DNA of 64,000 bases from Rhodospirillaceae bacterium (GTDB lineage Bacteria; Pseudomonadota; Alphaproteobacteria; MPNO01; VGEU01). The position numbers and the translations under genes were made by a program. The notes under the pieces were generated by a model, which saw nothing but the letters and a program-made list of their open reading frames with translations, searched no databases and was not told the origin of the DNA. This document shows positions 3,198 through 36,469 of this stretch, piece after piece; within the stretch, counting starts at the first letter, position 1; the number at the start of each line of letters is the position of its first letter. The stretch is taken from assembly GCA_050249455.1 (NCBI GenBank), contig JBFWQM010000002.1, positions 8,888 to 72,887 on the forward strand. The letters run 5' to 3'.

Positions 3198-3950
3198 CTA
3201 GCGCAGCGGGTGCGCCGTCGTCAGGGCGTCGATTTCCTCGGCCGGCATCGCCCAGGCCAGCATCTCGCTGCGCATCCGCACGCGCTGGACGCTGACCTCG
3301 TGAAGCGCCGTCCTCATCCGGGCGAGGTCGTCCGGCGCTGCTGCTGCTGCGGCGGCGTCCCTGGCGGCGCGGGTGTAGTGGTCCTTCTCGTCGACGTAGA
3401 TGACCTTCATCGCCGCCGCCAGCAGCTCCTCGAACGCGCCGCCGGAAAGGCGCGACATCTCGCGGAAGGTGCTCGAGCCGCCGCCCTCGGTCAGGCCCAT
3501 CACCGCTTTCAGGCAGGGGTCGCCCGACTCGACGTAGCGCCTGCGCATCGCATTGAGGATCTTGTCCTCCGGCAGCTGCTGCGGATCGTCGGGCGTCAGG
3601 TCGCGGCCGAGCAGGTACTCCAGCACCTCGGCGAGCACGAGGTAGTGGTTGAACTCGTCGGTCATCATGTGCATGCGGGCGTAGATCTCGCGCCGGTCGA
3701 TGCCGCGGTCGAGCTGCGGGAACATCGCGCACACCTCGGCGAACTCCATGTGCAGCGCGTTGGCGTAGCCCTCGGTCGAGCCGTAGCCGATCGAGGGGTT
3801 GAGCTCCTTGTAGATCGCCGCGCGCAGGTAGCGCACCCAGTCCTCGCGCGTCGGCCTGCCGGCGCAGAAACGGCGCGCCACCTCGGCCTCGGCATCCCAG
3901 AACGGCCGGGCGACGGCGATCAGCTCCTCGACGGTCCGGTCGGTATCCAT
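3198..3950 (-). CDS. uncharacterised ferritin-like (putative di-iron carboxylate) protein
   Basis: Start taken at the internal ATG (MDTDRTVEEL), which follows a GGAG. Two ExxH motifs (TDEFNHY, VDEKDHY) plus candidate partner glutamates (HMEFAE, LTEGGG) fit a four-helix-bundle di-iron site. Confidence 0.55.
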   Translation of the reverse strand: MDTDRTVEELIAVARPFWDAEAEVARRFCAGRPTREDWVRYLRAAIYKELNPSIGYGSTEGYANALHMEFAEVCAMFPQLDRGIDRREIYARMHMMTDEFNHYLVLAEVLEYLLGRDLTPDDPQQLPEDKILNAMRRRYVESGDPCLKAVMGLTEGGGSSTFREMSRLSGGAFEELLAAAMKVIYVDEKDHYTRAARDAAAAAAAPDDLARMRTALHEVSVQRVRMRSEMLAWAMPAEEIDALTTAHPLR

Positions 3951-4074: not shown

Positions 4075-5100
4075 CTATTCGATCGCCTTCTTGAACTTGG
4101 CGACCATCTCGGCCGGGGTCTTTGCGGCCTTGACGACGATCTTCTGGACCTCCTCCCCGCTCATCGGGTCGAGGTCCATCTTGCGCTTCTCGGCCTCGGC
4201 GATGAAATCGCGGTCCTTCATGGTGTCGGCGAAGGCCTTGCGCAGGGCGGCGGCGCGGTCGGCCGGCACGCCGGGCGGCAGGATGAAGACGCGCCCGACG
4301 GCGGTGGTGGAGGCCATCAGCTCGAGCAGGTCGCGGGCTTCTTCCGTCTTGGCGAGGTCCTTGACCACCGGGATGTGCTTGGCGTCGGGCGCCGGGGTCA
4401 GCGACACCATGGCGACCGGGATCAGCTCCTTCTTCTCCAGCTTCTGGGTCATCACCGACTTCACGCTGGCCCAGCTGTTGGCCATGCCGTGGACCTCCCC
4501 GCGCTCCATCGCGAGGTTGACCTCCTTCGAGCCCGTGTAGCCCAGGACGACCCGGTACTTCATGCCGAGCAGGTTCTTCATCAGGGTCGGATTCATGTAG
4601 TCCTGGCTCGCCTTGCCGGTGCCGCCGAACAGGACCTCCTTGGTCTCCATCTCCTTCAGCGTGGTCGCCGGCGCGGTGTGCCAGACCATGATGGCGCTGT
4701 TCATGTTGTCGATGCGGCCCAGGTGATAGGCCTCCGCCGCGTCGTACTTGATGCCGCCTTCCTGCAGCGCCTGTCCCAGCGCGTAGGAATTCGACGGCAT
4801 GCCGACATACGAGCCGTCCTTCGGCGCGACGTTGAACAGGTAGTTGGCGGCCTTCACCCCGCCGGCGCCGGGCATGAACTGGACGATGACGTTGGGGTGG
4901 CCCGGGATGTGCTTGCCCCAGAACTGGGCGAGCGTGCGCGCGTAGATCGAGTAGCCGCCGCCTTCCCCGAAGGCGACCACGACGGTGATGTCCTTGTCCT
5001 TGTAGAAATCGGAGACGGCGTCGGCGCGGGCCGCCGGCGCGGCGCAGAGCGTTGCGATCGCGGCCGCCGCGACGGTGCCGGCAAAAAGACGGTTCAGCAT
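4075..5100 (-). CDS. Bug/TctC-type tripartite tricarboxylate transporter substrate-binding protein (orphan)
   Basis: Signal peptide ending in ARADA. Blocks GEGGGYSIYART, PGHPNVIVQFMPGAGGVKAANYL and APKDGSYVG are as in Bug-family receptors. No TctA or TctB gene is in the window. Confidence 0.7.
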   Translation of the reverse strand: MLNRLFAGTVAAAAIATLCAAPAARADAVSDFYKDKDITVVVAFGEGGGYSIYARTLAQFWGKHIPGHPNVIVQFMPGAGGVKAANYLFNVAPKDGSYVGMPSNSYALGQALQEGGIKYDAAEAYHLGRIDNMNSAIMVWHTAPATTLKEMETKEVLFGGTGKASQDYMNPTLMKNLLGMKYRVVLGYTGSKEVNLAMERGEVHGMANSWASVKSVMTQKLEKKELIPVAMVSLTPAPDAKHIPVVKDLAKTEEARDLLELMASTTAVGRVFILPPGVPADRAAALRKAFADTMKDRDFIAEAEKRKMDLDPMSGEEVQKIVVKAAKTPAEMVAKFKKAIE

Positions 5101-7683: not shown

Positions 7684-8943
7684 ATGACCCAGCCCGCCAC
7701 AGTCTGGCCCGCCGACGACTTCTCGCGCGTACCCTATGGCCTCTACCACGACGCCGACGTCTACCGGCAGGAGCACGACCGCATCTTCCGCGGGCCGACG
7801 TGGTGCGTGCTGGCGCTGGAGGCGGAGCTGCCGAAGCCGGGCGACTTTCTGGTCAGCCACGTCGGCGACATCCCGGTGGTGGTCAACCGCACCGCCGCCG
7901 GCGCCATCGCCGCCTTCGTCAACCGCTGCGCCCACCGCGGGGCGGAGATCGTGCGCGTGCCGCGCGGCAACGCCCCGGACCACACCTGCATCTACCACGC
8001 GTGGTGCTACAGCCAGACCGGCGAGCTGCTCGGCGTGCCGTTCCAGCGCGGCGCCAACGGCAAGGGCGGCATGCCGGCCGGCTTCGACCGCAAGAAGCAC
8101 GGCCTCACGACATTGCGCATCTCGGTGTGGAAGGGGATCGTCTTCGGCAGCTTCAGCCCGGACGCCGAGCCGATCGAGGGCTACCTGGGACCGCTATTGG
8201 TCGACCACCTGGGCGAGCTGTTCGACAAACCGGTGCGCATCATCGGCTACCAGCGCCAGCGGGTGGCCGCCAACTGGAAGCTCTACCTGGAGAACGTGCG
8301 CGACGGTTACCACGGCAGCCTGCTGCACGAATTCAACCGCACCTTCGGGCTCAGCCGGCTGACCCAGGTGGCGCACAGCTACATGGACGCCGAGCATCGC
8401 CACAGCGTGCTGTTCCAGTTCGCCGGCTCCGACGACACCGGCGCTGCGCGCGGCGCCTACGCGCAGGAACGGGTGCATCAGGGCAACTACCTGACCCTGG
8501 AGGACAACGACATCGTCACCTTCGTGCCGGAAAACCCGCGCGGCATCACCACGCGGATCATCTCGGTGTTCCCGTCGGCGGTGTTCAACCAGATCTCGAA
8601 CTGCCTCGCGATGCGCCGCGTGCGCCCGATCGGTCCGGGCGAGTTCGAGGTGGTGTTCACCCTGTTCGGCTACGAAGACGACGACGAGACGATGACGGCG
8701 CACCGGGTCAACCAGTGCAACATGGTCGGCCCGTCCGGCCTGATCTCGATGGAGGACGGCGAGGCGCTGGAGCTGATCCAGCGCTCCACCGCGCCCGACC
8801 AGGACAACGCCGGCGTGGTGGAGATGGGCGGCACCGGACCGATCGTCGATCTCGACACGCGGGTGTGCGAGAACACGATCCGCGGCTTCTGGGCCTATTA
8901 TAGCCGGCTGATGGGCAACGCCCCGGCAGGAGCGCAGCGATGA
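7684..8943 (+). CDS. Rieske aromatic-ring-hydroxylating oxygenase, alpha subunit
   Basis: Rieske motif CAHRG...CIYHAW (CxH-N17-CxxH) followed by a catalytic domain. The stop overlaps the start of the next gene (ATGA at 8940-8943). Confidence 0.9.
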   Translation: MTQPATVWPADDFSRVPYGLYHDADVYRQEHDRIFRGPTWCVLALEAELPKPGDFLVSHVGDIPVVVNRTAAGAIAAFVNRCAHRGAEIVRVPRGNAPDHTCIYHAWCYSQTGELLGVPFQRGANGKGGMPAGFDRKKHGLTTLRISVWKGIVFGSFSPDAEPIEGYLGPLLVDHLGELFDKPVRIIGYQRQRVAANWKLYLENVRDGYHGSLLHEFNRTFGLSRLTQVAHSYMDAEHRHSVLFQFAGSDDTGAARGAYAQERVHQGNYLTLEDNDIVTFVPENPRGITTRIISVFPSAVFNQISNCLAMRRVRPIGPGEFEVVFTLFGYEDDDETMTAHRVNQCNMVGPSGLISMEDGEALELIQRSTAPDQDNAGVVEMGGTGPIVDLDTRVCENTIRGFWAYYSRLMGNAPAGAQR

Positions 8944-9416
8944 CCGTGACGCCGGAAGTCCGCGCGCTGGCGGAAGACCTGGTGCTGAAGAGCGCCTACC
9001 TGATCGACAACGACGAGCTGGAGGCGTGGCTCGACTGCTTCGACGACGACGGCAGCTACATCGTGATGCCGCGCGACAACCGCGACCTCGGCCTGCCGGT
9101 GGCGCTGATCCACTGCGCGACCAAGGCGCGGCTGCGCGACCGCATCGTCTGCCTGCGCCAGGCCAGCAAGGTCAACCCGCACGTCGACCGCCACATCGTC
9201 AGCCGGTCGCTGGTCACCGGCTGCGACGACGGCGTCGCCACCGTGCAGTCGAGCTTCATGGTGGTGCAGACCAGCCTGTCGGGGCTGTCGAAGCTGTTCT
9301 GCGCCGGGGTCTACGAAGACCGCATCCGCATCGCGAACGGCGCCGCCCGCTTCGCCGCGCGCACGGCGGTGGTCGACACGTTCTCGATCCCGACCATGCT
9401 CGGCACGCCGATCTGA
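8940..9416 (+). CDS. ring-hydroxylating oxygenase beta subunit (SnoaL-like fold)
   Basis: 158 aa. The block LIDNDELEAWLDCFDDDGSYIVMPRDN and the translational coupling to the alpha subunit support the call. Confidence 0.8.
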   Translation: MTVTPEVRALAEDLVLKSAYLIDNDELEAWLDCFDDDGSYIVMPRDNRDLGLPVALIHCATKARLRDRIVCLRQASKVNPHVDRHIVSRSLVTGCDDGVATVQSSFMVVQTSLSGLSKLFCAGVYEDRIRIANGAARFAARTAVVDTFSIPTMLGTPI

Positions 9417-9457
9417 CCGGCGGGCGCCGCCGGCCATCCCGCAACAGGAGGAAACCA

Positions 9458-9859
9458 ATGGCCCGTCTGCGTCACTTCGCGATAGTCGTCGGCGACCTGG
9501 AGAAGTCGGCGGCGTTCTACGAGAGCGTGTTCGAGCTCAAGCGCGTCGGGCAGGAGAAGCTCGACTTCGCCGCCGCGATCTACCTCAGCGACGGCGTGAT
9601 CAACCTCGCGCTGCTCAACTATTTCGGCAAGCGCGGATCGGGGCTGGACGACGCGGCGAAGTTCGTCGGCGCGCACCATTTCGGCTTCCAGGTCGACGAC
9701 ATCGCCGACGCCCAGAAGCGCATCGAGGCGGCCGGCGGCACGTTCTTCTTCGACCTCGGCGACGACCCGGAGAAGGAGAACTTCGAGCGCAAGTTCAAGG
9801 ACCCCGACGGGATCATCTTCGACGTCTCGCGCAAGGGCTGGCTCGGCGCGTCGGGCTAG
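9458..9859 (+). CDS. VOC (glyoxalase/bleomycin-resistance/dioxygenase) family protein
   Basis: Internal ATG preceded by AGGAGG. Contains LRHFAIVVGDLEKSAAFYESVF and HHFGFQVDD. Single-domain VOC of about 133 aa. Confidence 0.8.
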   Translation: MARLRHFAIVVGDLEKSAAFYESVFELKRVGQEKLDFAAAIYLSDGVINLALLNYFGKRGSGLDDAAKFVGAHHFGFQVDDIADAQKRIEAAGGTFFFDLGDDPEKENFERKFKDPDGIIFDVSRKGWLGASG

Positions 9860-11244
9860 CGCCGCGGCGTCGCGGCGGCGGGCGCGAAGCGGCGGACCAT
9901 GCCGTCGTACTTGGTCAGCACGTAGACCTCGCCGTCCTCGCCGATGCCGAAGCGCAGGTCGGCCCGCGGCGCGTCGCCCATCAGCGACAGCAGCGTGACC
10001 GCGCGGCCGTCGCGCAGCAGGGTCAGCTCGCCGATCCGCGGGTCGCGGCCGGCGATCAGGTCGGCCGCGGTCGCATGGAAGACGCGGCCGCCGAACAGGT
10101 CGCCGAACACATACTCGCCGGCAAGGTCAGGCACGCGCGCGCCGCGGTAGACGTAGCCGCCGACGATCGACCGGCCTTCGTCGTGGTCGTACTGCGCCAG
10201 CGGGTAGACGAAGCCGTGCCGCGCGTCGTCGGCAGGCAGCGGATACAGCGTCTCCGGGTTGGCGCGGTCGAGCACGAAGCGGCCCTCGCGCAGCGGCCAG
10301 CCGTAGTTGGCGCCGGCGCGGCCCAGGTCGATCTCCTCCACGTTGTCCTCGCCGATGTCGGCGATCAGCATCGCGCCGCTGTGGCCGACGTCCCAGCCGA
10401 AGCGCTGCGGGTTGCGCAGGCCGTAGGCCCAGACCTCGCCCAATGCGCCGCCTTGCGCGGCGAACGGGTTGTCCGGCGGGATCGCGTAGGCGCGGCTGCC
10501 AGCGGCGCGCGGGTCGATGCGCAGGATCTTGCCGAGCGGCGCCGACAGGTCCTGCGCGCGGCTGCCCGACGGCGGGAAGGTGCCGTCGCCGACGCCGACA
10601 TAGAGCATGCCGTAGCCCGCATCGCCCGGCCGCAAGGTCGGGTCGAACGCGAGCTGGCCGACGTTGTGGCCGAAGTTCGGGAACGCGACGCGCAAGAGCT
10701 CGCGCCGCGACGACGGGTCGGCGCGGTCGGGCGCGGCCGGGTCGACCCGCCACTCGGCGACCACGTCGACATGGTTCACCTTGGCCATCAGCGCCTCGCC
10801 AAGCGCGGGCAGCGCGGGGTCCGGGCGCTCCGAGCTGACGGTGTAGAACCGGCCCTCGCCGGGCGCGCCGCGCCGCGCATAGTCGGGGTGAAAGGCGATG
10901 GTCTTGGCGCCCTTCTCGCGGCTGTCGTCGAGGAAGCGGTCGCCGCGCGCGACGGCGAGGTCGAGGAACACGGCGGGGCGCGACATGCCGGGGCGGAAGA
11001 CGTAGATGCGCCCGCGCATGTCGACCACGAACAGCCGGCCCGAGCCGTCGCCGGCGTGGGTCAGGAAGTCGAGGCGCGCGCGTGGCGGGTCGGGGCTCGA
11101 CGGCGGGATGCGCACGACGTCGACCAGCTCCGCCGCCCGGCCGCTCGGCGCGATGCGCTGCGGGATCGGATCCGGCGTGACCGGCGCCTGCGCCGCCGCC
11201 GCGCCGGCCCACAGCGCGAGCGCGAAGACGGCCGCGCGCCTCAT
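9856..11244 (-). CDS. PQQ-dependent sugar (glucose/sorbosone) dehydrogenase-family beta-propeller, secreted
   Basis: Start at MRRAAVFALALWAGAAAAQA (signal peptide). Blocks HAGDGSGRLFVVDMRGRIYV, GVGDGT, ILRIDP, GLRNPQRFGWD and GANYGWPLREG are present. The upstream part of the 743-aa track ORF is not coding in this frame. Confidence 0.85.
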   Translation of the reverse strand: MRRAAVFALALWAGAAAAQAPVTPDPIPQRIAPSGRAAELVDVVRIPPSSPDPPRARLDFLTHAGDGSGRLFVVDMRGRIYVFRPGMSRPAVFLDLAVARGDRFLDDSREKGAKTIAFHPDYARRGAPGEGRFYTVSSERPDPALPALGEALMAKVNHVDVVAEWRVDPAAPDRADPSSRRELLRVAFPNFGHNVGQLAFDPTLRPGDAGYGMLYVGVGDGTFPPSGSRAQDLSAPLGKILRIDPRAAGSRAYAIPPDNPFAAQGGALGEVWAYGLRNPQRFGWDVGHSGAMLIADIGEDNVEEIDLGRAGANYGWPLREGRFVLDRANPETLYPLPADDARHGFVYPLAQYDHDEGRSIVGGYVYRGARVPDLAGEYVFGDLFGGRVFHATAADLIAGRDPRIGELTLLRDGRAVTLLSLMGDAPRADLRFGIGEDGEVYVLTKYDGMVRRFAPAAATPRR

Positions 11245-23044: not shown

Positions 23045-23115
23045 CCCCCTCCCGCGAGGGGGGGGCTAGTAGAGACTTCCCCTCCCCTCACGGGAGGGGG
23101 TTGGGGGGAGGGGGC
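23045..23115. repeat. ORF-less derivative of the DUF559-cassette repeat (truncated right arm, 12-nt spacer, full left arm)
   Basis: 23045-23066 is CCCCCTCCCGCGAGGGGGGGGC. The spacer is tagtagagactt. 23079-23115 is CCCCTCCCCTCACGGGAGGGGGTTGGGGGGAGGGGGC. Confidence 0.6.
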
Positions 23116-23130
23116 GGAAAAATGGAGTCT

Positions 23131-24690
23131 TCAGCCGCGCCCCTGCTTCCACAGGGCGACCAGGCCGTTGCGGTCGACCTTGCCGCGGTCGGTCTTGAGG
23201 ATGGTCTCGACGAAGACGATCTCCTTCGGCCGCTTGAAATCCGGCAGCGCGGCGGCGCAGTGTGCCTGCACGGCGGCGGCATCCAGCGCGCGGCCGGCCT
23301 TCGGCGCGACGTAGCACACCACCGCCTCGCCGTAGATCGGGTCGGGCACGCCGACGGTGGCGGCCTCCGCGATGTCGGGATGGGTCATCAAGAGGTTGTC
23401 GATCTCCAGCGGCGCGATGTTGACGCCGCCGCGGATGATCAGGTCCTTGGCGCGGCCGGTCACGTAGAGGAAGCCGTCCGGGTCGAGATAGCCGAGGTCG
23501 CCGGTCTTCAGCCGGTTGCCGCGGATCTGCTGCACGGTGCCGTCCTCCAGCAGGTAGCCGAAGGCGTTCTGCGCGCCGCCGATCTCAATTTCGCCGACCG
23601 CGCCCTGCGGCAGCTTCTGGCCGTCCTCGCCGACGATGCGCAGGTTCTGGTAGAGCCCCGGCCGGCCGACCGAGCCGATGCGCCGCGTCTCCGGGCTGTT
23701 GCCGGCGACCACGCCGCCTTCGCTCATGCCGTAGAGCTGGACCAGGCGGATGCCGTAGGTCTCCTCGAACCGGCGGTGCTGGTCGAGCATCAGCGGCGCG
23801 GTCGACGACGACATGAAGCGCAGGCTGCCGAACTGCCGCGTCCGCACGTCGACCGGGCGGTCGAGCAGCATGTTGATGACGGTCGGCACGCCGATCGCGA
23901 TGGTCGGCTTCAGGTCGCGCACCCAGTCGAAGAACCGGCTCTGCGAGAAGCGCTTTGCGAACAGCAATGTCGCGCCCGACAGCAGGCACGGGTGCAGGCA
24001 CAGCATGTGCGACGACGCCCAGCTGAACGAGCGGTATTCCAGGATGCGGTCGGCCTCGCTCAGTCCCCACATCGCGACCGTTTGCTCGGCGATGCGCTGG
24101 TAGTCGTCGAAGCTGTGCATCACGCCCTTGGGCTTGGCGGACGTGCCCGAGGTGAAGCTGATCAAGGCGAGGTCGTCGGGCGCCGCGGTGCACGCCAGCT
24201 CCGGCGCATCCGGCAGCGCATCGACCGCCGCGAACAGCCCGCCGTCGTCGCTGCCGAACGCGCCGAACGGGATCCAGTCGCCGGGCGCGCCGACGCCGAG
24301 CGCCTCCGGGTCGAGCGTCCTGTCCCACAGCACCAGCTTCGGCTGCAGCCGCGACAGCATCTCCTTCAGATGGGCCGACTGGATCTCGACGTTGACCGTG
24401 CAGTAGGTCGCGCCGGCGCGCATCACCGCGTAATAGAGGACGACGTTCTCCAGCGAGTTGTCCGTCATCACGGCGATGCGGTCGCCCGGCCCGATGCCCC
24501 GGTCCGCGCAGAACCGGGCGAACCGGTTGGCGAAGCGATAGAGCGCGTCCCAGCCGACCGAGGTGCCCTGGTCGATCGAATGCAGGAACGTCCGCCCGCC
24601 GTGCCGCGCCGCGCCGGCGCGCAGCAGGTCGAGCACGCTGCGGAAGCTGCCCGGCGGCGGGGCGGCGGGGATGTCTGCGGTCAAGCTCAC
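23131..24690 (-). CDS. AMP-dependent synthetase/ligase (acyl- or aryl-CoA ligase)
   Basis: Contains SFTSGTSAKPKGV (the AMP-binding motif), YGMSEGG, TGDLGYLDPDGFLYVTGRAKD and the terminal K in GKVDR. A GTG start at 24690 after GGGAGA is preferred, because the longer track ORF runs through the DUF559 cassette in another frame. Confidence 0.85.
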   Translation of the reverse strand: MSLTADIPAAPPPGSFRSVLDLLRAGAARHGGRTFLHSIDQGTSVGWDALYRFANRFARFCADRGIGPGDRIAVMTDNSLENVVLYYAVMRAGATYCTVNVEIQSAHLKEMLSRLQPKLVLWDRTLDPEALGVGAPGDWIPFGAFGSDDGGLFAAVDALPDAPELACTAAPDDLALISFTSGTSAKPKGVMHSFDDYQRIAEQTVAMWGLSEADRILEYRSFSWASSHMLCLHPCLLSGATLLFAKRFSQSRFFDWVRDLKPTIAIGVPTVINMLLDRPVDVRTRQFGSLRFMSSSTAPLMLDQHRRFEETYGIRLVQLYGMSEGGVVAGNSPETRRIGSVGRPGLYQNLRIVGEDGQKLPQGAVGEIEIGGAQNAFGYLLEDGTVQQIRGNRLKTGDLGYLDPDGFLYVTGRAKDLIIRGGVNIAPLEIDNLLMTHPDIAEAATVGVPDPIYGEAVVCYVAPKAGRALDAAAVQAHCAAALPDFKRPKEIVFVETILKTDRGKVDRNGLVALWKQGRG

Positions 24691-25172
24691 GCGCGTCTCC
24701 CAGGAGCGAAAGCCCCCTCCCCTCGCGGGAGGGGGTTGGGGGAGGGGGTGTCCGAAGCGCATCGCCGCTCGACCGTCTCCGCGATCGTCTGCACCACGCT
24801 TTCGAGATTGGTCAGCACGTCGTGGTTCCAAAATCGCATGATTTCGTAACCTTGCGCGACAAGCCACGCGTCGCGCTCCGCATCGCGCCGACGATCCGGT
24901 GCACGCGTGTGCTGTCCGCCATCGATTTCGACCGCGATGCGCGCGGGAAAGCAGACGAAGTCGACAACGTAGGGGCCGAGCGGTACTTGACGGCGGAAGC
25001 GCAGTCCGCCGAGGGCGTGACGGCGGAGCGCAAACCACAGACGAGTCTCGGCTTCGGTCATGCGCTTGCGCAGCGAGCGTGCCCGCCCGGTGAGGTCGGC
25101 GGACGGCACCGCCCCCTCCCCCAACCCCCTCCCGCGAGGGGAGGGGGCTCTTCCTCGCGCGGTCGGGCTCAT
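24687..25172 (-). CDS. DUF559 (Vsr-like / PD-(D/E)xK-type endonuclease fold) protein, copy 1
   Basis: Core block TEAETRLWFALRRHALGGLRFRRQVPLGPYVVDFVCFPARIAVEIDGGQH...RDAWLVAQGYEIMRFWNHDV. Both protein termini are encoded by the flanking G/C repeats (PSPRGRGLGEG, PSPNPLPRGEG). The ATG at 25061 is an alternative start. Confidence 0.75.
   Translation of the reverse strand: MSPTARGRAPSPRGRGLGEGAVPSADLTGRARSLRKRMTEAETRLWFALRRHALGGLRFRRQVPLGPYVVDFVCFPARIAVEIDGGQHTRAPDRRRDAERDAWLVAQGYEIMRFWNHDVLTNLESVVQTIAETVERRCASDTPSPNPLPRGEGAFAPGRRA
24712..25148 (-). mobile_element. DUF559 cassette 1: ORF bounded by perfect 37-bp inverted repeats
   Basis: 24712-24748 is GCCCCCTCCCCTCGCGGGAGGGGGTTGGGGGAGGGGG. 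25112-25148 is its exact reverse complement. The DUF559 core lies between them. Confidence 0.5.
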
Positions 25173-28270: not shown

Positions 28271-29053
28271 TCAGCGCGGCTGGGCGTCGAGGAACTTCGC
28301 CACCGTCGTCGTGAACCCGGCCGGGTTGTCGAGGTTGGCGAGGTGGCCGGCGTTTGGGATCACCTCCAGGGTCGCGCCCTTCACGGCGTCGCGGATCTTC
28401 TCCGACATCGGCATCGGGGTCGACTTGTCCTGGTCGCCGATCAGCACCTTGGTCGGCACGGTGATCTTCGGCAGCACGGGCGACAGGTCGTCGGTGAACA
28501 CCGACCGCACGGTCGCGAGGTAGTGCGCCTTGTCGATCTTGGCGATCGCGGCGGCGAGATCGTCGTGCGCGGCCCTCGACGTGGTCTTGAGCAGGCGGTC
28601 GTCGGCGTACCACGCGCCGAAGTCCTTCATCGTGGTCTTGCCGAGCGCGGTCTCCATGCCCTTGATGCGGTCCTGGCCGCCGATGTTCTGCTCCGCGAAC
28701 GAGTCGGCGATGATCATCGAGCGCACCATCTGCGGGTGCTTGTCGTAGAAGGCGAGCGCGATCGGCCCCCCCATCGAGAGACCCAGGATGTGCGCCTGCT
28801 TGACGCCGCAGGCGTCCAGTACCGCCTTCAGGTCGGCCGCCGCCTTCGCCACCGTCCACTGGCCGCCGTTGCAGGTGGAATCGCCATGGCCGCGGGTGTC
28901 GTAGGCGATGCAGGTGTAGCGGTCCTTCAGCGCGTCGATCTGGTCGCGGTAGAGGTAGAGGCCGGTGCCCAGGCTGTGGATGAAGGCGAGTGCCGGGCCC
29001 GTGCCCTCCTTGACGTAGGCGATGCGTTCGCCATCGGTTTCGACGAAGGGCAT
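28271..29053 (-). CDS. alpha/beta hydrolase
   Basis: Start MPFVETDG after AAGGAGG. Contains HSLG, the nucleophile elbow GLSMGG, and a C-terminal GH (NAGHLANL). Confidence 0.85.
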   Translation of the reverse strand: MPFVETDGERIAYVKEGTGPALAFIHSLGTGLYLYRDQIDALKDRYTCIAYDTRGHGDSTCNGGQWTVAKAAADLKAVLDACGVKQAHILGLSMGGPIALAFYDKHPQMVRSMIIADSFAEQNIGGQDRIKGMETALGKTTMKDFGAWYADDRLLKTTSRAAHDDLAAAIAKIDKAHYLATVRSVFTDDLSPVLPKITVPTKVLIGDQDKSTPMPMSEKIRDAVKGATLEVIPNAGHLANLDNPAGFTTTVAKFLDAQPR

Positions 29054-29091
29054 GGAAGCCTCCTTTGCGCTGATCCGTTGTCGCGGGCGTT

Positions 29092-29901
29092 CTAGCACCC
29101 GCCGCCGGCGCGGTCGAGGAACGCGGCGAGCGCCGTATCGAACGCCGCCGGGTCCTCCAGGCAGCCGTAATGTCCGACGCCGGGAAGGAGGGCGAACGCC
29201 GCGCCCAGCGCATCCGCCACCGCGCGGCAGGCGGCTTCCGGCGCCACCTTGTCGGCGCCGCCGCACATCACCAGCGCCGGCGCCGCAATGCGCGGCGCGT
29301 CGGCGATCACGTCGGCGCGCGCCAGCATCTCGACCATGCCGCGATAGCCGGCAGGGCGCACCGCCGCCATCGTCGCCACCACGTCCGTGACCAGCGCCGG
29401 CGCGGCGCCGGGCCCCAGGACGCCCGGCCCGCGCGCCGCCGCGAAGCCGGCCGGCCCCAGCGCCGCGAACGGCTCCAGCCGCGCCCGCCTGGCGGCCTCG
29501 CGCGCCTCGGGGGCCAGCATCGCGGTGCCGGCGAGGCCATGGCAGAACGTGAAGCTCAGCGCGCGGGGCGGGAACAGCCGGCAGAACGCGGCTGCGATCG
29601 GCGCCCCGGCGGATTGCCCGACCACGTGCGCCCGCTCGACCTTCAGCTTATCGAGCAGGCCGGCCAGCGCCCGCGCATAGTCGTCCGGCGACGGCGTTTC
29701 GTGGGCCAGGTCGTCCGACCCGCCATATCCCGGCGCATCCCACGCGATCACCTTGAACCGCGCCGCGAAGCTGTCGAGCTGGTTCGCCCACGTCTGCGAC
29801 GCGCCGCCGATCCCATGCAGCAGGACCAGCGCGGGACCGGCGCCGGCCTCGCGGAAGGCGATGGTGCGGCCGTCGACTCGAGCTTTCCGGAGCGGCGCCA
29901 C
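29092..29901 (-). CDS. alpha/beta hydrolase
   Basis: GTG start. Contains LLHGIGG, the nucleophile elbow GQSAG and GVGHYGCLE. Confidence 0.8.
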   Translation of the reverse strand: MAPLRKARVDGRTIAFREAGAGPALVLLHGIGGASQTWANQLDSFAARFKVIAWDAPGYGGSDDLAHETPSPDDYARALAGLLDKLKVERAHVVGQSAGAPIAAAFCRLFPPRALSFTFCHGLAGTAMLAPEAREAARRARLEPFAALGPAGFAAARGPGVLGPGAAPALVTDVVATMAAVRPAGYRGMVEMLARADVIADAPRIAAPALVMCGGADKVAPEAACRAVADALGAAFALLPGVGHYGCLEDPAAFDTALAAFLDRAGGGC

Positions 29902-30329
29902 TACTTCCCCTCCCCTCGTGGGAGGGGGTTGGGGGGAGGGGGTGCCTGCCCCAGAGATGCTCTATCGCGCACGATGGAATCGATGCGCTGCAGGACGCCC
30001 TCCAGGTTCTCCATTACGTCGTTGTTCCAGAAGCGGAGAACGATGAACCCGCTCAGGCCGAACCAGGCGTCGCGCTTGCCATTCGCGTCACGGCCCGCAT
30101 CGGTGTTGTGCTGTCCGCCGTCGATCTCGATGACGACGCGGGCTCCGTAACAGACAAAATCCGCGATGTAGGGGCCGAACGGTACCTGGCGGCGGAAGCG
30201 CAGGCCGGCGATCTGCTTCGATCGGAGTGCCTGCCAAAGCTTCTTTTCCGCGTCGGTCATGGCGACGCGGAGGGCGCGGGATTTGGAAATGGGTGGGATC
30301 GAGTCCGTGGCTGGCGCCCCCTCCCCCAA
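29901..30329 (-). CDS. DUF559 (Vsr-like endonuclease fold) protein, copy 2
   Basis: Core block TDAEKKLWQALRSKQIAGLRFRRQVPFGPYIADFVCYGARVVIEIDGGQH...RDAWFGLSGFIVLRFWNNDV. The track start is a TTG inside the repeat; the ATG at 30260 is an alternative. The C-terminus PPPPNPLPRGEGK is repeat-encoded. Confidence 0.75.
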   Translation of the reverse strand: MGEGAPATDSIPPISKSRALRVAMTDAEKKLWQALRSKQIAGLRFRRQVPFGPYIADFVCYGARVVIEIDGGQHNTDAGRDANGKRDAWFGLSGFIVLRFWNNDVMENLEGVLQRIDSIVRDRASLGQAPPPPNPLPRGEGK

Positions 30330-30353
30330 CCCCCTCCCACGAGGGGAGGGGGC
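29907..30353 (-). mobile_element. DUF559 cassette 2: ORF bounded by the same repeat family
   Basis: 29907-29942 is CCCCTCCCCTCGTGGGAGGGGGTTGGGGGGAGGGGG. 30317-30353 is CCCCCTCCCCCAACCCCCTCCCACGAGGGGAGGGGGC. The arms are near-identical to cassette 1, and the single loop substitution is mirrored in both arms. Confidence 0.5.
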
Positions 30354-30360
30354 TAATAGT

Positions 30361-31182
30361 TTAGGCCGCGGTCGCCTTCTGCGATGCGGCCTTGTAGAGG
30401 CCGTAGGCGGTGTCGAGGGCGGCGAGGCAGTCGGGGTCGAAGTCGCGCGTCGGGGTCGGCTCGACGTTCCAGAAGCCGTGGGTGTCGCGGCCGCGGCAGA
30501 CCATGGCGGTGGCGCCCTCGAACAGGGTCTGGCGCACGTTGGGCGCGATGTAGTGGATCGAGTAGCCGATGCGCCGGTCGTCGGAGCCGTTGGGCGGCGA
30601 GGCGTGGAAGGTGAGCTCGCTGTGGAACGAGAACTCGCCGGCCTTGAGCACGACGTCGACCGCCTTGGACTCGTCGATGCCGCGGATGGTCTGGCCGCGC
30701 GACAAGAGGTTGTTGGGGTCGAACGTCTCGTCGTGCGTCGCCTGTGTGCCGTCGCGGTGGCTGCCCGGCAGCATCTTCATGCAGCCGTTCTCGGTGTTCG
30801 CGTCGGTGAAGGCGACCCAGGCGGTCAGCGTATCGCGCGGCTTCAGCCCGTAATAGGTGGTGTCCTGGTGCCAGGAGACGTAGCGCGGGTCGCGCGCGTT
30901 CTTGGAGAAGAAGCTCGAGCCCCAGCATAGGATATTGGGGCCGATCATGTCCTCCACCGCGTCGAGCAGCTTGGGATGGCGGATCAGGTTGCACAGCCAC
31001 GGGAACGGCAGATGCGCCTTGATCTTGTAGCGGACCTGCGCCTCCTCGCCGATGTGGGCCTCCAGCGTCTCGAACCGCCGGCGCAGCTCGCGCGCCTCCG
31101 GGCCGTTCAGCAGGGGCACCGGCGCAAGGAACCCGTCGTGCTTGTAGCGCGCGACCTGCTCGTCGCTCAGAACTCTTCCCAT
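30361..31182 (-). CDS. phytanoyl-CoA dioxygenase (PhyH) family Fe(II)/2-oxoglutarate oxygenase
   Basis: Start MGRVLSDEQVARYKHDGF. Contains the HxD motif (WHQDTTYY) and a distal His in FHSELTFHAS. Confidence 0.85.
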   Translation of the reverse strand: MGRVLSDEQVARYKHDGFLAPVPLLNGPEARELRRRFETLEAHIGEEAQVRYKIKAHLPFPWLCNLIRHPKLLDAVEDMIGPNILCWGSSFFSKNARDPRYVSWHQDTTYYGLKPRDTLTAWVAFTDANTENGCMKMLPGSHRDGTQATHDETFDPNNLLSRGQTIRGIDESKAVDVVLKAGEFSFHSELTFHASPPNGSDDRRIGYSIHYIAPNVRQTLFEGATAMVCRGRDTHGFWNVEPTPTRDFDPDCLAALDTAYGLYKAASQKATAA

Positions 31183-31193
31183 GACGCCCTCCG

Positions 31194-32048
31194 CTATGCC
31201 GCCGCTTCGACCGGGCGGTCCTGGCCCTGGACGGTGGTGCGGCGCAGGAGGCGCCGCTCGGTTTCGGGAAAATCGGTGCGCGCGTGCGTCGAGCAGCGGT
31301 TGTCCCACATGACGAGGTCGCCCGGGCGCCAGCGGTGCTCGTAGACGAATGCGCGGTTCTCGCAGTGGTCGCACACCGCGGCGATCAGCGCCTCGCTCTC
31401 GGCCGGGTCCATGTCGATGATGTGATGGGTCATCAGGCGGTTCATGTAGACCGCCTTGCGCCCGGTCTCCGGGTGCGTCCACACAACCGGGTGCTCGCTC
31501 TTGCCGAACGCCGGCGTGCCCTTGCCGTCGCCGCGCTGCGTCGAGCCGTAGTGGTAGTGGACATAGGCGCGCCGGCCGGCGAGCTTGTCCTTCAGCCGCT
31601 GCGGCAGCGTCTCGTAGGCCTTGTACATGTTGGCGAACATCGTGTTGCCGCCGACCGACGGCACCTCGATCGCATACAGCAGGGTCGCCTTGTCGGGCGT
31701 ATCGATATGCATCATGTCGTGATGGAACATCATCTCGCCGTCGGGCAGCGAGCCGATCGGCTTGCCGTTCTCGCGGATGTTGGAGATCAGCATCGTCGCC
31801 GGGTGCAGGTCGTCGGACTCGGCGCGGAACTCCTTCGGCCGCGGGCGGATGCCGGGGGTGCCGAAGATCTCGGTGAACCGGATCTGGTCCATCTCGGCCA
31901 GGTTCTGGCCGCGGAACAGGACGATCACGTTGTCGAGCCACGCCTGATAGACCGCGCGCTTCGTGGCGGCGTCGATCGGCTTGGTCAGGTCGACGCCGCG
32001 GATCTCCGCCCCGATCGCCGGTGACAGCGGCACCACCTCGATCGTCAT
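31194..32048 (-). CDS. TauD/TfdA-family Fe(II)/2-oxoglutarate dioxygenase, copy A
   Basis: Start MTIEVVPLSPAIGAEIRGVDL after GGGAGG. Contains FHHDMM (HxD), NTMFANMY and WDNRCSTHAR. Confidence 0.9.
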   Translation of the reverse strand: MTIEVVPLSPAIGAEIRGVDLTKPIDAATKRAVYQAWLDNVIVLFRGQNLAEMDQIRFTEIFGTPGIRPRPKEFRAESDDLHPATMLISNIRENGKPIGSLPDGEMMFHHDMMHIDTPDKATLLYAIEVPSVGGNTMFANMYKAYETLPQRLKDKLAGRRAYVHYHYGSTQRGDGKGTPAFGKSEHPVVWTHPETGRKAVYMNRLMTHHIIDMDPAESEALIAAVCDHCENRAFVYEHRWRPGDLVMWDNRCSTHARTDFPETERRLLRRTTVQGQDRPVEAAA

Positions 32049-36272: not shown

Positions 36273-36420
36273 GGCGGCCGCCCACCTCACCCTCCCCATC
36301 GCGTTGCGATGGGTCCCCTCCCTCTCCCCCCATGGCGGGCGGAGAGGGACGCTTCATGCCCTCTCCGCCCATTGGGGGAGAGGGTGCGAGCGCAGCGAAC
36401 GGGTGAGATGGGCGGCCGCC
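36273..36420. repeat. 148-bp composite palindromic (MITE/REP-like) element
   Basis: The 20-nt termini GGCGGCCGCCCACCTCACCC and GGGTGAGATGGGCGGCCGCC are inverted repeats (19/20). Inside are two CCCTCTCC...GGAGAGGG hairpins. Confidence 0.6.
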
Positions 36421-36469
36421 GGCTTATCCGCGCCGCGATATTCCTGCCGCCGCGGGGTGCCTGTCCGCC

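Follow-up and report, generated by a model that had tools for sequence, protein, structure and literature searches.

The question raised by this locus is why two genes of the DUF559 family, located 4.8 kb apart on the same strand of one genome, are each enclosed by inverted copies of the same short repeat, and why these repeats are kept far better than the genes between them. The locus lies in a stretch of 64,000 nucleotides (nt) from a Rhodospirillaceae bacterium (assembly GCA_050249455.1, contig JBFWQM010000002.1, positions 8,888 to 72,887 of the forward strand), hereafter called the window, in which positions are counted from the first base. The analysis was centered on cassette 2 (29901-30353, minus strand), consisting of a DUF559 open reading frame (ORF) bracketed by two 36-nt inverted arms; the second copy is designated cassette 1 (24687..25172, minus strand). 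The arms were identified as the BoxC repeat, and its association with DUF559 genes was found to recur across bacterial phyla. On balance, cassette 2 is probably, if by no means certainly, a copy of a widespread selfish nuclease gene with BoxC ends, moved by a mechanism that we infer, and ORF-less BoxC copies would be the relics of such genes.

The 5′ arm of cassette 2 (30317..30352) is one unit on the minus strand and reads CCCCCTCCC-CTCGT-GGGAGGGGG-TT-GGGGGAGGGGG, that is, a pyrimidine block, CCCCCTCCC, followed by a loop, the complementary purine block, GGGAGGGGG, a linker and a third G block, GGGGGAGGGGG, which mirrors the second block. The 3′ arm (29907..29942) is a plus-strand unit reading CCCCTCCC-CTCGT-GGGAGGGG-GTT-GGGGGGAGGGGG. 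Paired with each other, the arms make an inverted repeat of 35 nt with 94% complementarity; the hairpin of each arm points outward and its third block points to the ORF. The unit has a loop of 4-5 nt and a TT linker. Following a full-text literature search with the block sequences, the arms were matched to the repeat treated by Holder et al. 2015 (PMC4666352). This repeat, the BoxC of enterobacteria, was renamed "potential intrastrand triplex" (PIT) and later G/C-rich "triplex motif" (TM), with the consensus CCCTCNCCC-N3-6-GGGNGAGGG-N3-GGGNGAGGG (PMC4666352). Judged by their block order, the arms are a sequence variant of BoxC/PIT/TM, since they do not match the exact E. coli letters (CCCTCNCCC and the N3 linker). 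In E. coli K-12 there are 23 copies, five of which stand as inverted pairs; as single-stranded DNA the unit adopts a purine-motif triplex in vitro, and motif-bearing loci are unusually variable between strains (PMC4666352). Pairs always join a "type A" with a "type B" unit, and palindromic pairs have been seen reduced to a hairpin (PMC4666352). PIT elements block DNA polymerase in vitro. BoxC/TM has been found in hundreds of bacterial genomes, among them E. coli, Neisseria, Pseudomonas and Microcystis; it is associated with genome instability, and according to published work no mobility function was ever found near it.

All four cassette arms and three more copies in the window parse as pyrimidine block, loop, purine block, linker and G block. 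The arm pattern gave 7 matches, against 0.00 expected, corresponding to 7 full units in 64 kb. All seven are of the CCCC(C)TCCC type, their third block consists of at least 88% G, and all are located between host genes, though the DUF559 ORFs read through units. The arms are not private to the cassettes, and ORF-less copies are present at 23045-23114 and 61506-61582. The pair at 23045..23114 occupies the spacer between an acyl-CoA ligase gene and the next gene and is composed of a hairpin lacking the third block (23045-23065), 13 nt, and a full plus-strand unit (23079-23114) with loop CTCAC. The pair at 61506..61582 consists of two diverged units placed head-to-head, a minus-strand unit with loop CTTGC (61506-61541) and a plus-strand unit with loop TCGAC (61549-61582). 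In both ORF-less pairs the loops are discordant. A different GC-rich palindromic element is found at 36280-36425, with two CCCTCTCC-type hairpins (36319-36349 and 36359-36384) inside an outer inverted repeat GGCGGCCGCCCACCTCACCC ... GGGTGAGATGGGCGGCCGCC; it has no third G block and no DUF559 gene nearby, and is not BoxC/TM.

The link between gene and repeat was surveyed by scanning one genome per species. Among the first 600 candidates 585 relatives were confirmed, and the best 80 loci (80 species) were kept, spanning Alpha-, Beta-, Gamma- and Deltaproteobacteria, Chloroflexi, Planctomycetota, Nitrospirota, Elusimicrobiota, Gastranaerophilales and Binatia. With a simple inverted-repeat finder, the same design of a hairpin plus a G block was seen around most of the 80 loci. 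With a strict structural scanner, the full motif was found on both sides and inverted at 41 loci, on one side at 25 and on neither side at 14, so that at least one flanking motif is present at 66/80; several of the 14 motif-free loci are at contig ends or still show inverted repeats of the hairpin-only kind. In one locus (L028), runs of N stand exactly at the expected arm positions (2712-2844 and 3388-3483) and may be assembly gaps or masking. In 27 of 40 cassettes the ORF extends at least as far as the outer border of the 3′ arm, and homologues were found with arm-encoded peptides at both termini (...PSPLAGEG..., ...PSPARGEG, ...PLPRGERV and ...TLPRKGGG). In a crude neighbor analysis, the upstream gene was co-oriented with the DUF559 gene at 28/37 loci (28:9, p=0.003), and the downstream gene at 22/35, which is not significant. 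Two loci carry a second DUF559 copy of a distinct subgroup with motifs FYRQ and LRFSD (L016, 10541-10882; L042, 3974-4339). Because these copies are without BoxC arms, the linkage appears specific to one DUF559 subfamily.

In the literature searched, no paper was found that ties DUF559 or ycjD to BoxC or to intrastrand triplexes, and DUF559 is absent from the text of Holder et al. (PMC4666352). Repeat and protein domain were each already known; what would be new is their association. Among the targets over-represented in a survey of programmed inversions are 'DUF559 domain-containing protein' (odds ratio 14.3) and 'endonuclease domain-containing protein' (odds ratio 9.6; PMC9881135), an enrichment which inverted-repeat-flanked DUF559 genes would produce.

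The association can be followed into E. coli itself, where ycjD ends in "...RRSPSP*" within a degenerate arm. TM#9 of Holder et al. lies ~170 nt past ycjD, beside a duplicated fragment of the ycjD 3′ end (L083; E. coli K-12, 1351200-1351420). BoxC was reportedly first noticed in 1992 beside envM (= fabI), the neighbor of ycjD. Of 5,426 complete E. coli genomes, 3,378 carry the gene and 38% lack it; strains without it have a resistance-nodulation-division (RND) efflux island next to fabI. In SBF22, the one ycjD-less strain examined, homology to K-12 stops ~40 nt from the position of TM#9, and a truncated BoxC remnant, CCCCAACCTCCCCCTTGC, is located at the breakpoint (L105, 2410-2440). This fits the reported instability at such motifs and is no proof of movement.

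The ORF of cassette 2 (29901..30329, minus strand) encodes a YcjD-family protein of 142 amino acids (aa) with a Vsr fold. Its score against Pfam DUF559 (PF04480) is 124.2 bits, and that of the cassette 1 protein 133.1 bits, the cut-off being 20.6. At E<=0.01 only DUF559 and MTES_1575 were matched in Pfam and the Vsr model was not. In a family alignment of 20 sequences D57, E68, D70, G71, G72 and H74 are invariant (D ... E-x-D-G-G-x-H, of PD-(D/E)XK type). The sole solved relative by sequence is PDB 3HRL, an uncharacterised "endonuclease-like protein" of Neisseria gonorrhoeae (E=1.5e-22). Using an AlphaFold model (mean predicted local distance difference test, pLDDT, 77), fold matches were obtained in the order 3HRL (E=4.5e-8), the catalytic domain of I-Bth0305I (template modeling score, TM-score, 0.80 on the target), the nuclease domains of PvuRts1I/AbaSI, and Vsr; the match to 1VSR was weak (E=0.06, TM-score about 0.5). 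VsrA of Caulobacter, a DUF559 protein, causes DNA damage when the cytosine methyltransferase is missing (PMC12907096). On the strength of the Pfam score, the invariant residues, 3HRL, the fold matches and VsrA, the cassette 2 protein is very probably an active Vsr-fold nuclease. A cytosine methyltransferase gene is not adjacent, the neighbors being PhyH and hydrolase genes. The ratio of nonsynonymous to synonymous divergence (dN/dS) of the ORF was 0.23 against its ortholog in a close relative (L001), and 0.12 and 0.19 for the neighbor genes. The DUF559 ORF is under purifying selection.

The two cassettes of the window were aligned directly. The 5′ arms are identical at 39 of 40 positions and the 3′ arms at 36 of 38, with one substitution and one extra C, while the interiors share 63.8% nt identity and the proteins 53-54% aa identity; the preliminary description, in which the proteins were about half identical and the arms far better kept, is thereby confirmed. 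In all four arms, identity breaks off sharply at the borders of the 36-nt motif. The protein family tree is star-like: core identity is 50-56% for nearly all pairs, and in an ordering by similarity to cassette 2, cassette 1 comes only 10th to 13th out of 41. The arm distance of cassettes 1 and 2 equals the lowest value among 668 cross-species pairs at 48-58% protein identity (mean 9.25 edits), and the diverged copy pairs in L032 (52%) and L049 (54%) have clearly different arms per copy. For these two reasons the near-identity of the arms is not explained by family-wide constraint alone.

A substitution in the loop had been described as mirrored in both arms (CGCG in cassette 1, CGTG/CACG in cassette 2) and was recovered here, each cassette having one loop sequence in its two arms, CTCGC in cassette 1 and CTCGT in cassette 2. 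Over a larger, independent set the pattern held. Of 40 cassettes taken from different species, 22 have the same loop in their two arms, where random left/right pairing predicts 1.6; none of 20,000 permutations reached 22 and none exceeded 8. When only arms with identical pyrimidine blocks were compared, loop identity was still 13/23 vs 7%. Mirrored variants include multi-base ones (GAATC, GCAGGC, TTCA, AGC, ATT and ACTCGT). A total of 239 motifs were counted over the surveyed loci and the window, among them those of 45 cassettes, of 13 ORF-less pairs placed tail-to-tail and of 43 pairs placed head-to-head; in roughly half of the head-to-head pairs, an extra motif abuts a cassette arm. Loops are identical in 26/45 cassettes vs 14/56 other adjacent motif pairs of the same genomes (Fisher p=0.001), the latter comprising 2/13 tail-to-tail pairs, 6/23 free head-to-head pairs and 6/20 pairs abutting a cassette. 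The five ORF-less E. coli pairs in Table 1 of Holder et al. (PMC4666352) are all loop-discordant by inspection. Loop co-variation is thus tied to the presence of the ORF.

Selection on arm pairing and copying of one arm from the other had both been offered as causes. Of this proposal the co-variation stands, in ORF-specific form, and the copying does not: the loops agree in 22/40 cassettes but the linkers in no more than about 5/40, which makes copying of whole arms unlikely and is in line with the joining of a "type A" with a "type B" unit described by Holder et al. Such position-specific co-variation fits both loops being read alike, by one protein or through loop-loop pairing. Other origins of matched loops were considered and rejected. 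Target-site duplication of a pre-existing hairpin would leave loops in the flipped relation, which was seen in 0/40 cassettes; loops are reverse complements, inverted and not direct, in 40/40, and the arms are true inverted repeats. RNA kissing between loops gave no signal, the discordant loops being wobble-compatible on the mRNA strand in about half of the cases and not in the other half (by eye). Linker type (TT vs CC) did not prefer the 5′ or 3′ arm on a consistent side across species, although it was consistent within L066.

The mirrored base itself is the last base of the loop, a C before a G, changed by a C-to-T transition. In a Parvibaculaceae locus (L066) the same position is C or T among 8 arms (5′ arms T,C,C,C; 3′ arms T,T,T,C) while the rest hardly varies, and 6 of 7 single-base loop differences within cassettes are C/T transitions. 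Since the site is recurrently polymorphic and the change is a transition, a single mirrored C-to-T is weak evidence when taken alone and could have arisen by two hits at a labile position; the co-variation argument rests on the family-wide statistic and not on the mirrored base.

Cassette 2 is found at the same junction in L001, where PhyH is 96%, the hydrolase 93% and DUF559 88% identical at the aa level. Both L001 arms also carry the T, so that this loop state predates the split between the two. In L001 the 5′ hairpin is broken by an 18-nt insertion and the 3′ arm has 4 changes in ~38 nt. The insertion (4935-4965, ortholog of window 30330-30352), CTTGGGCCGCAAAGCGGACCAAG, is itself a small hairpin and replaces the purine half. 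Most of the arm changes are derived in L001, the arms of cassette 1 agreeing with the window at 3 of 4 differing positions; synonymous divergence of the neighbor genes is 0.15-0.30. Arms at a fixed locus thus drift at a roughly neutral rate, and the ORF does not. This qualifies the preliminary statement that the pattern does not look like neutral decay of an old insertion, since in the ortholog the arms do decay, next to an ORF that is held by purifying selection.

Empty sites of both cassettes were found through protein searches and contig look-ups. For cassette 1, a relative with a ligase 79% identical (L103) has the same order of hydrolase, Rieske, UbiD, ligase and next gene; its UbiD and ligase genes overlap (ATGCGTGA) with neither cassette nor hairpin, and after its ligase gene, at the site of the window pair 23045-23114, only a 33-nt motif-free spacer is present. 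For cassette 2, two relatives with a hydrolase at 53% identity (L101/L102) leave only 5 nt between the PhyH and hydrolase genes. A relative more distant than L001 (L100, hydrolase 75% identical) has the same MarR-TauD-TauD-TauD-PhyH-hydrolase operon without DUF559; from the PhyH stop to the hydrolase GTG it has only GTCTTCCG-CTCCCC-TCG-GGGGAG-AGGGCGTCA, a single hairpin that is 8 nt from the stop and 5 nt from the GTG, as are the outer halves of the two window arms. Because these relatives (L103, L101/L102 and also L100) lack the cassettes, both cassettes are insertions at operon junctions that are uninterrupted in close relatives, as the preliminary description had proposed. Cassettes 1 and 2 and the 23045-23114 pair were therefore either gained in the lineage of the window or precisely lost from the relatives. 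The L100 hairpin may be a deletion footprint or an earlier solo insertion. The former reading follows from the build of a cassette, in which the C block and the G block each occur three times in direct orientation, because slippage between the outermost pair leaves one hairpin; slippage between other block pairs would leave a solo full motif. No BoxC pair is present at the empty sites of cassettes 1 and 2. A metagenome scan for empty sites with the hydrolase returned relatives at <=37% identity only, plus a 43-residue fragment at 56%.

Multiplication of the whole unit was seen in L066, which carries five DUF559 copies in two tandem arrays. Its cassettes are 93-97% identical, identity includes ~15 nt beyond each arm, and the spacers are 67-70 nt. 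The arrays (1-815 and 8875-10318) are oppositely oriented and two copies have N-terminal deletions; the linker is always CT in the 5′ arm and TTA, TCA or GTTA in the 3′ arm. In Luteimonas (L050, 9500-10760), a single cassette is flanked by a BoxC array of alternating orientation with a unit of ~136 nt, giving 14 motifs in 20 kb, and the spacers of its ORF-less tail-to-tail pairs resemble, by eye, the 15-20 nt at either end of the cassette interior.

In the host operon, cassette 2 is placed between the PhyH dioxygenase gene upstream (30361..31182, minus strand; stop TAA 30363-30361) and the alpha/beta hydrolase gene downstream (29092-29901), both on the strand of its ORF. This order and co-orientation, noted earlier, were confirmed, with the ORF matching DUF559 at E=2.7e-36. 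A spacer of 8 nt separates the PhyH TAA from the 5′ arm. The ORF starts with TTG at 30329, inside the arm linker, or with an alternative ATG at 30260, which would drop the first conserved helix, so that the start is uncertain; at 30290-30300 the window has ACG where L001 (~5001) has ATG (MDSIPPISK...). The whole 3′ arm is translated as part of the ORF, giving the C-terminal tail PPPPNPLPRGEGK, and the first stop is met in the 5-nt spacer. This stop, TAG (29903-29901), shares base 29901 with the hydrolase start, GTG (29901-29899), in the sequence TAGTG (29899..29903, minus strand), exactly as first read. Stop/start overlap as a regular feature of insertion did not hold up, since L001 has TAA followed directly by GTG without overlap and the overlap at cassette 1 is apparently ancestral.

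Cassette 1 lies between a UbiD-like gene and the acyl-CoA ligase gene (GTG start at 24690). Its ORF runs from ATG 25172 to TGA 24689-24687 and is translated through both arms, a minus-strand unit at 25112-25147 and a plus-strand unit at 24713-24748; the ATG is 4 nt past the UbiD stop and upstream of the 5′ arm, and the stretches outside the arms are 25148-25172 and 24687-24712. Its GTGA overlap appears to have been inherited from the ancestral overlap of UbiD stop and ligase start.

The terminal GGGGAGGGG of the cassette 2 3′ arm (mRNA strand) is 5 nt ahead of the hydrolase GTG. Because the 5-nt spacing is found in the window and L001 and the solo hairpin of L100 stands in the same place, 5 nt from its GTG, GGGGAGGGG probably serves as the ribosome-binding (Shine-Dalgarno) site of the hydrolase gene. 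No promoter-like or terminator-like site was found in window 29000-31500. A role of the arms as terminators or promoters was rejected, no motif having been found and the literature reporting neither activity for PIT elements (PMC4666352). Membership in a known RNA family was likewise rejected; no Rfam family matched the arms at the gathering score, and only chance-level matches (E about 0.5-0.75) were returned. With ViennaRNA, only hairpins were predicted for the arms (-10 to -15 kcal/mol, z-scores -1.2 to -2.9).

The identity of the arms, their linkage to the gene across phyla, the three insertion sites, the tandem amplification, the selection on the ORF and the ORF-tied loop co-variation, all of them observed, can be joined in the selfish-gene explanation as follows. 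The element would be a YcjD-family DUF559 nuclease gene (PD-(D/E)XK, Vsr fold) between two inverted BoxC copies. The nuclease would recognize or cut the structured ends, whether folded as hairpin, cruciform or triplex, and cutting would drive copying or movement, by homing into ORF-less BoxC pairs or by cut and repair. Both ends would be read alike, by the same protein or through loop-loop pairing, keeping the loops matched while the linkers drift. ORF-less units, pairs and lone hairpins would be non-autonomous derivatives or deletion relics, formed by slippage between C blocks or between G blocks. The element would be tolerated within operons by having no terminator, by a continuous ORF through its own ends, and by offering its last purine block as a ribosome-binding site to the downstream gene.

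Several points weigh against this explanation. To our knowledge, enzymes of the DUF559/Vsr type are repair nickases and not transposases. Clear target-site duplications are missing: at cassette 1 a 7-nt CGCGTGA is present on both sides and was matched or beaten in 455/2000 shuffles, and at cassette 2 there is none. The best flanking direct repeats are 7 nt long, with equal or better ones in 455-510 of 2000 shuffles; the CGCGTGA heptamer is the UbiD stop/ligase start motif and may be a short target duplication, which is not significant. The ORF-less pairs of the window are head-to-head, not tail-to-tail as expected for an empty homing site. Arm type barely follows protein similarity (Spearman -0.08), which argues against tight co-evolution of protein and arm. 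The decay of the L001 arms next to a conserved ORF indicates that the protein may serve the host or act in trans. As to a route of spread between species, plasmid copies are rare (45/72,556 records) and phage copies number 4. Near the TMs of E. coli, Holder et al. saw no genes for mobility, and most of the loci were stable (PMC4666352).

Some of these points would be expected if the protein were a host repair gene, a reading that we regard as unlikely. The protein would then be a domesticated Vsr-like nuclease of repair or structure processing, resolving triplex or hairpin blocks at BoxC or nicking T:G mismatches; BoxC would accumulate independently of gene mobility, and the C/T polymorphism in the loop would be due to deamination at methylated CG. 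In its favor, the variable loop C is part of a CG and alternates between C and T among recent copies, Caulobacter VsrA is functionally tied to a solitary 5-methylcytosine methyltransferase, DNA polymerase is blocked by PIT elements in vitro, purifying selection acts on the ORF even as its arms decay in L001, and plasmid and phage copies are rare. Such a gene would not be expected to have been inserted together with both arms, as a unit, at junctions that are empty in close relatives; whole-cassette tandem arrays and translation of the ORF through both arms are left unexplained, the Pfam Vsr model is unmatched and no methyltransferase gene is adjacent. For the mirrored base and the likeness of the arms, coincidence combined with family-wide constraint may be considered: structure would constrain almost all positions of BoxC and so make the arms of the two cassettes alike, and the base would have changed through two independent C-to-T transitions at a hypermutable loop position, with no need for a process between arms. 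This reading is favored by the ~73% identity that BoxC retains across phyla (edit distance between cassettes 9.6 of ~36 nt), by the C or T in the 8 arms of the 93-97% identical L066 cassettes and by the 6/7 C/T transitions. Coincidence nevertheless seems improbable to us: multi-base loop variants are mirrored too, 22/40 vs 1.6 expected is impossible from one hot spot, none of 668 cross-species pairs at equal protein divergence has a smaller arm distance than cassettes 1 and 2, and diverged copies normally have different arms, as in L032 and L049.

Exchange of sequence between repeats was weighed in two forms. Concerted evolution, by gene conversion or template switching between the arms and nearby BoxC copies and independent of any function, would account for near-identical arms on 54%-identical ORFs in one genome, for the shared CCCC(C)TCCC type of the seven window motifs, and for the enrichment of DUF559 among predicted inverted-repeat-flanked inversion targets (PMC9881135). 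Exchange was not of whole arms, given linkers matching in ~5/40 and loops in 22/40 cassettes, and identity ends exactly at the motif borders in four arms. RecA-dependent exchange requires a minimum length close to the 36 nt of the motif. ORF-less pairs in the same genomes, moreover, are mostly discordant, and we hold this process to be distinctly improbable as the cause. A programmed inversion switch, in which the arms act as recombination sites that flip the DUF559 segment, is the least credible of the readings and very improbable. The odds ratios of 14.3 and 9.6 speak for it (PMC9881135), an enrichment that is, however, a trivial consequence of flanking inverted repeats; no recombinase gene is adjacent, orientation is biased to that of the upstream gene (28/37), and both window cassettes and L001 are co-oriented with their operons.

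Extended from cassette 2 to the repeat as a whole, the selfish-gene explanation becomes more tentative. BoxC/PIT/TM might then be the ends and relics of bacteria-wide selfish elements mobilized by YcjD-family Vsr-fold nucleases, with folded ends and with matched loops as the specificity determinant; this is a possibility to which we give less than even credence. BoxC was described in 1992 and has had no known origin or function since, and DUF559/YcjD is a very common family of unknown function. If the association holds, a 30-year-old orphan repeat and a common domain share one testable explanation. If the wider proposal is true, lone hairpins and solo motifs are explained as deletion products of cassettes, and a nuclease type and a non-B-DNA end structure are added to the ways in which DNA moves: a new kind of mobile DNA, with an enzyme of PD-(D/E)XK nickase type and ends recognized as folded (hairpin or triplex) DNA. 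For annotation, it matters that DUF559 genes carry repeat-encoded N- and C-terminal tails and that assemblies can break at the arms.

Compared with known systems, the arms are closest to BoxC/PIT/TM as published (Bergler 1992; Hoyne & Maher 2000, 2002; Holder 2015), for example TM_ECO. They have the same three-block unit of ~36 nt and are likewise intergenic, multi-copy, often in inverted pairs, at variable loci and without promoter or terminator signals. They differ from the E. coli TM (CCCTCNCCC, N3) in their CCCC(C)TCCC blocks and 2-nt TT linker, and from published BoxC, which has no associated gene or mobility function, in that two copies bracket a nuclease gene, recurring in 66/80 species. 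Vsr and Caulobacter VsrA share the fold and the catalytic motif, and VsrA has a DUF559 domain; unlike Vsr, the gene described here has no linked cytosine methyltransferase gene and no match to Pfam Vsr, and it has structured flanking repeats and multiple diverged copies.

Among mobile systems, the arrangement resembles that of repetitive extragenic palindromic (REP) sequences, their doublets (REPINs) and REP-associated tyrosine transposases (RAYTs), in which a small enzyme gene lies between inverted copies of a short hairpin-forming dispersed repeat, as it does here, with enzyme-less singlets and inverted doublets elsewhere and genome-specific repeat variants. A RAYT is a Y1 HUH tyrosine transposase, whereas the enzyme here is a PD-(D/E)XK Vsr-fold DUF559 protein; BoxC has a third block with triplex or G-quadruplex potential, no GTAG/CGTC tetranucleotide stands beside the window arms, and RAYT genes are usually single and immobile, whereas the DUF559 gene with its arms is inserted at new sites and forms tandem arrays. 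Miniature inverted-repeat transposable elements (MITEs) and insertion sequences share the terminal inverted repeats (here 35 nt, 94%), the ORF-less derivatives of ~100 bp and the intergenic location, and MITEs also share spacers resembling the inner ends of the full element (L050); in contrast to them, the cassette has no DDE, serine or tyrosine transposase and no clear target-site duplication, its only ORF being DUF559. Homing endonuclease genes are alike in being placed between the halves of a repeated sequence, of which ORF-less tail-to-tail versions exist elsewhere and in E. coli, and the Vsr-like catalytic domain of I-Bth0305I (PDB 3R3P) is the second-best structural match. The cassette differs from them in having no intron, intein or phage context and in a target that would be a dispersed repeat and not a unique gene; unlike I-Bth0305I, the DUF559 protein, known here from sequence and model, has no DNA-binding extension past its catalytic core of ~100 aa.

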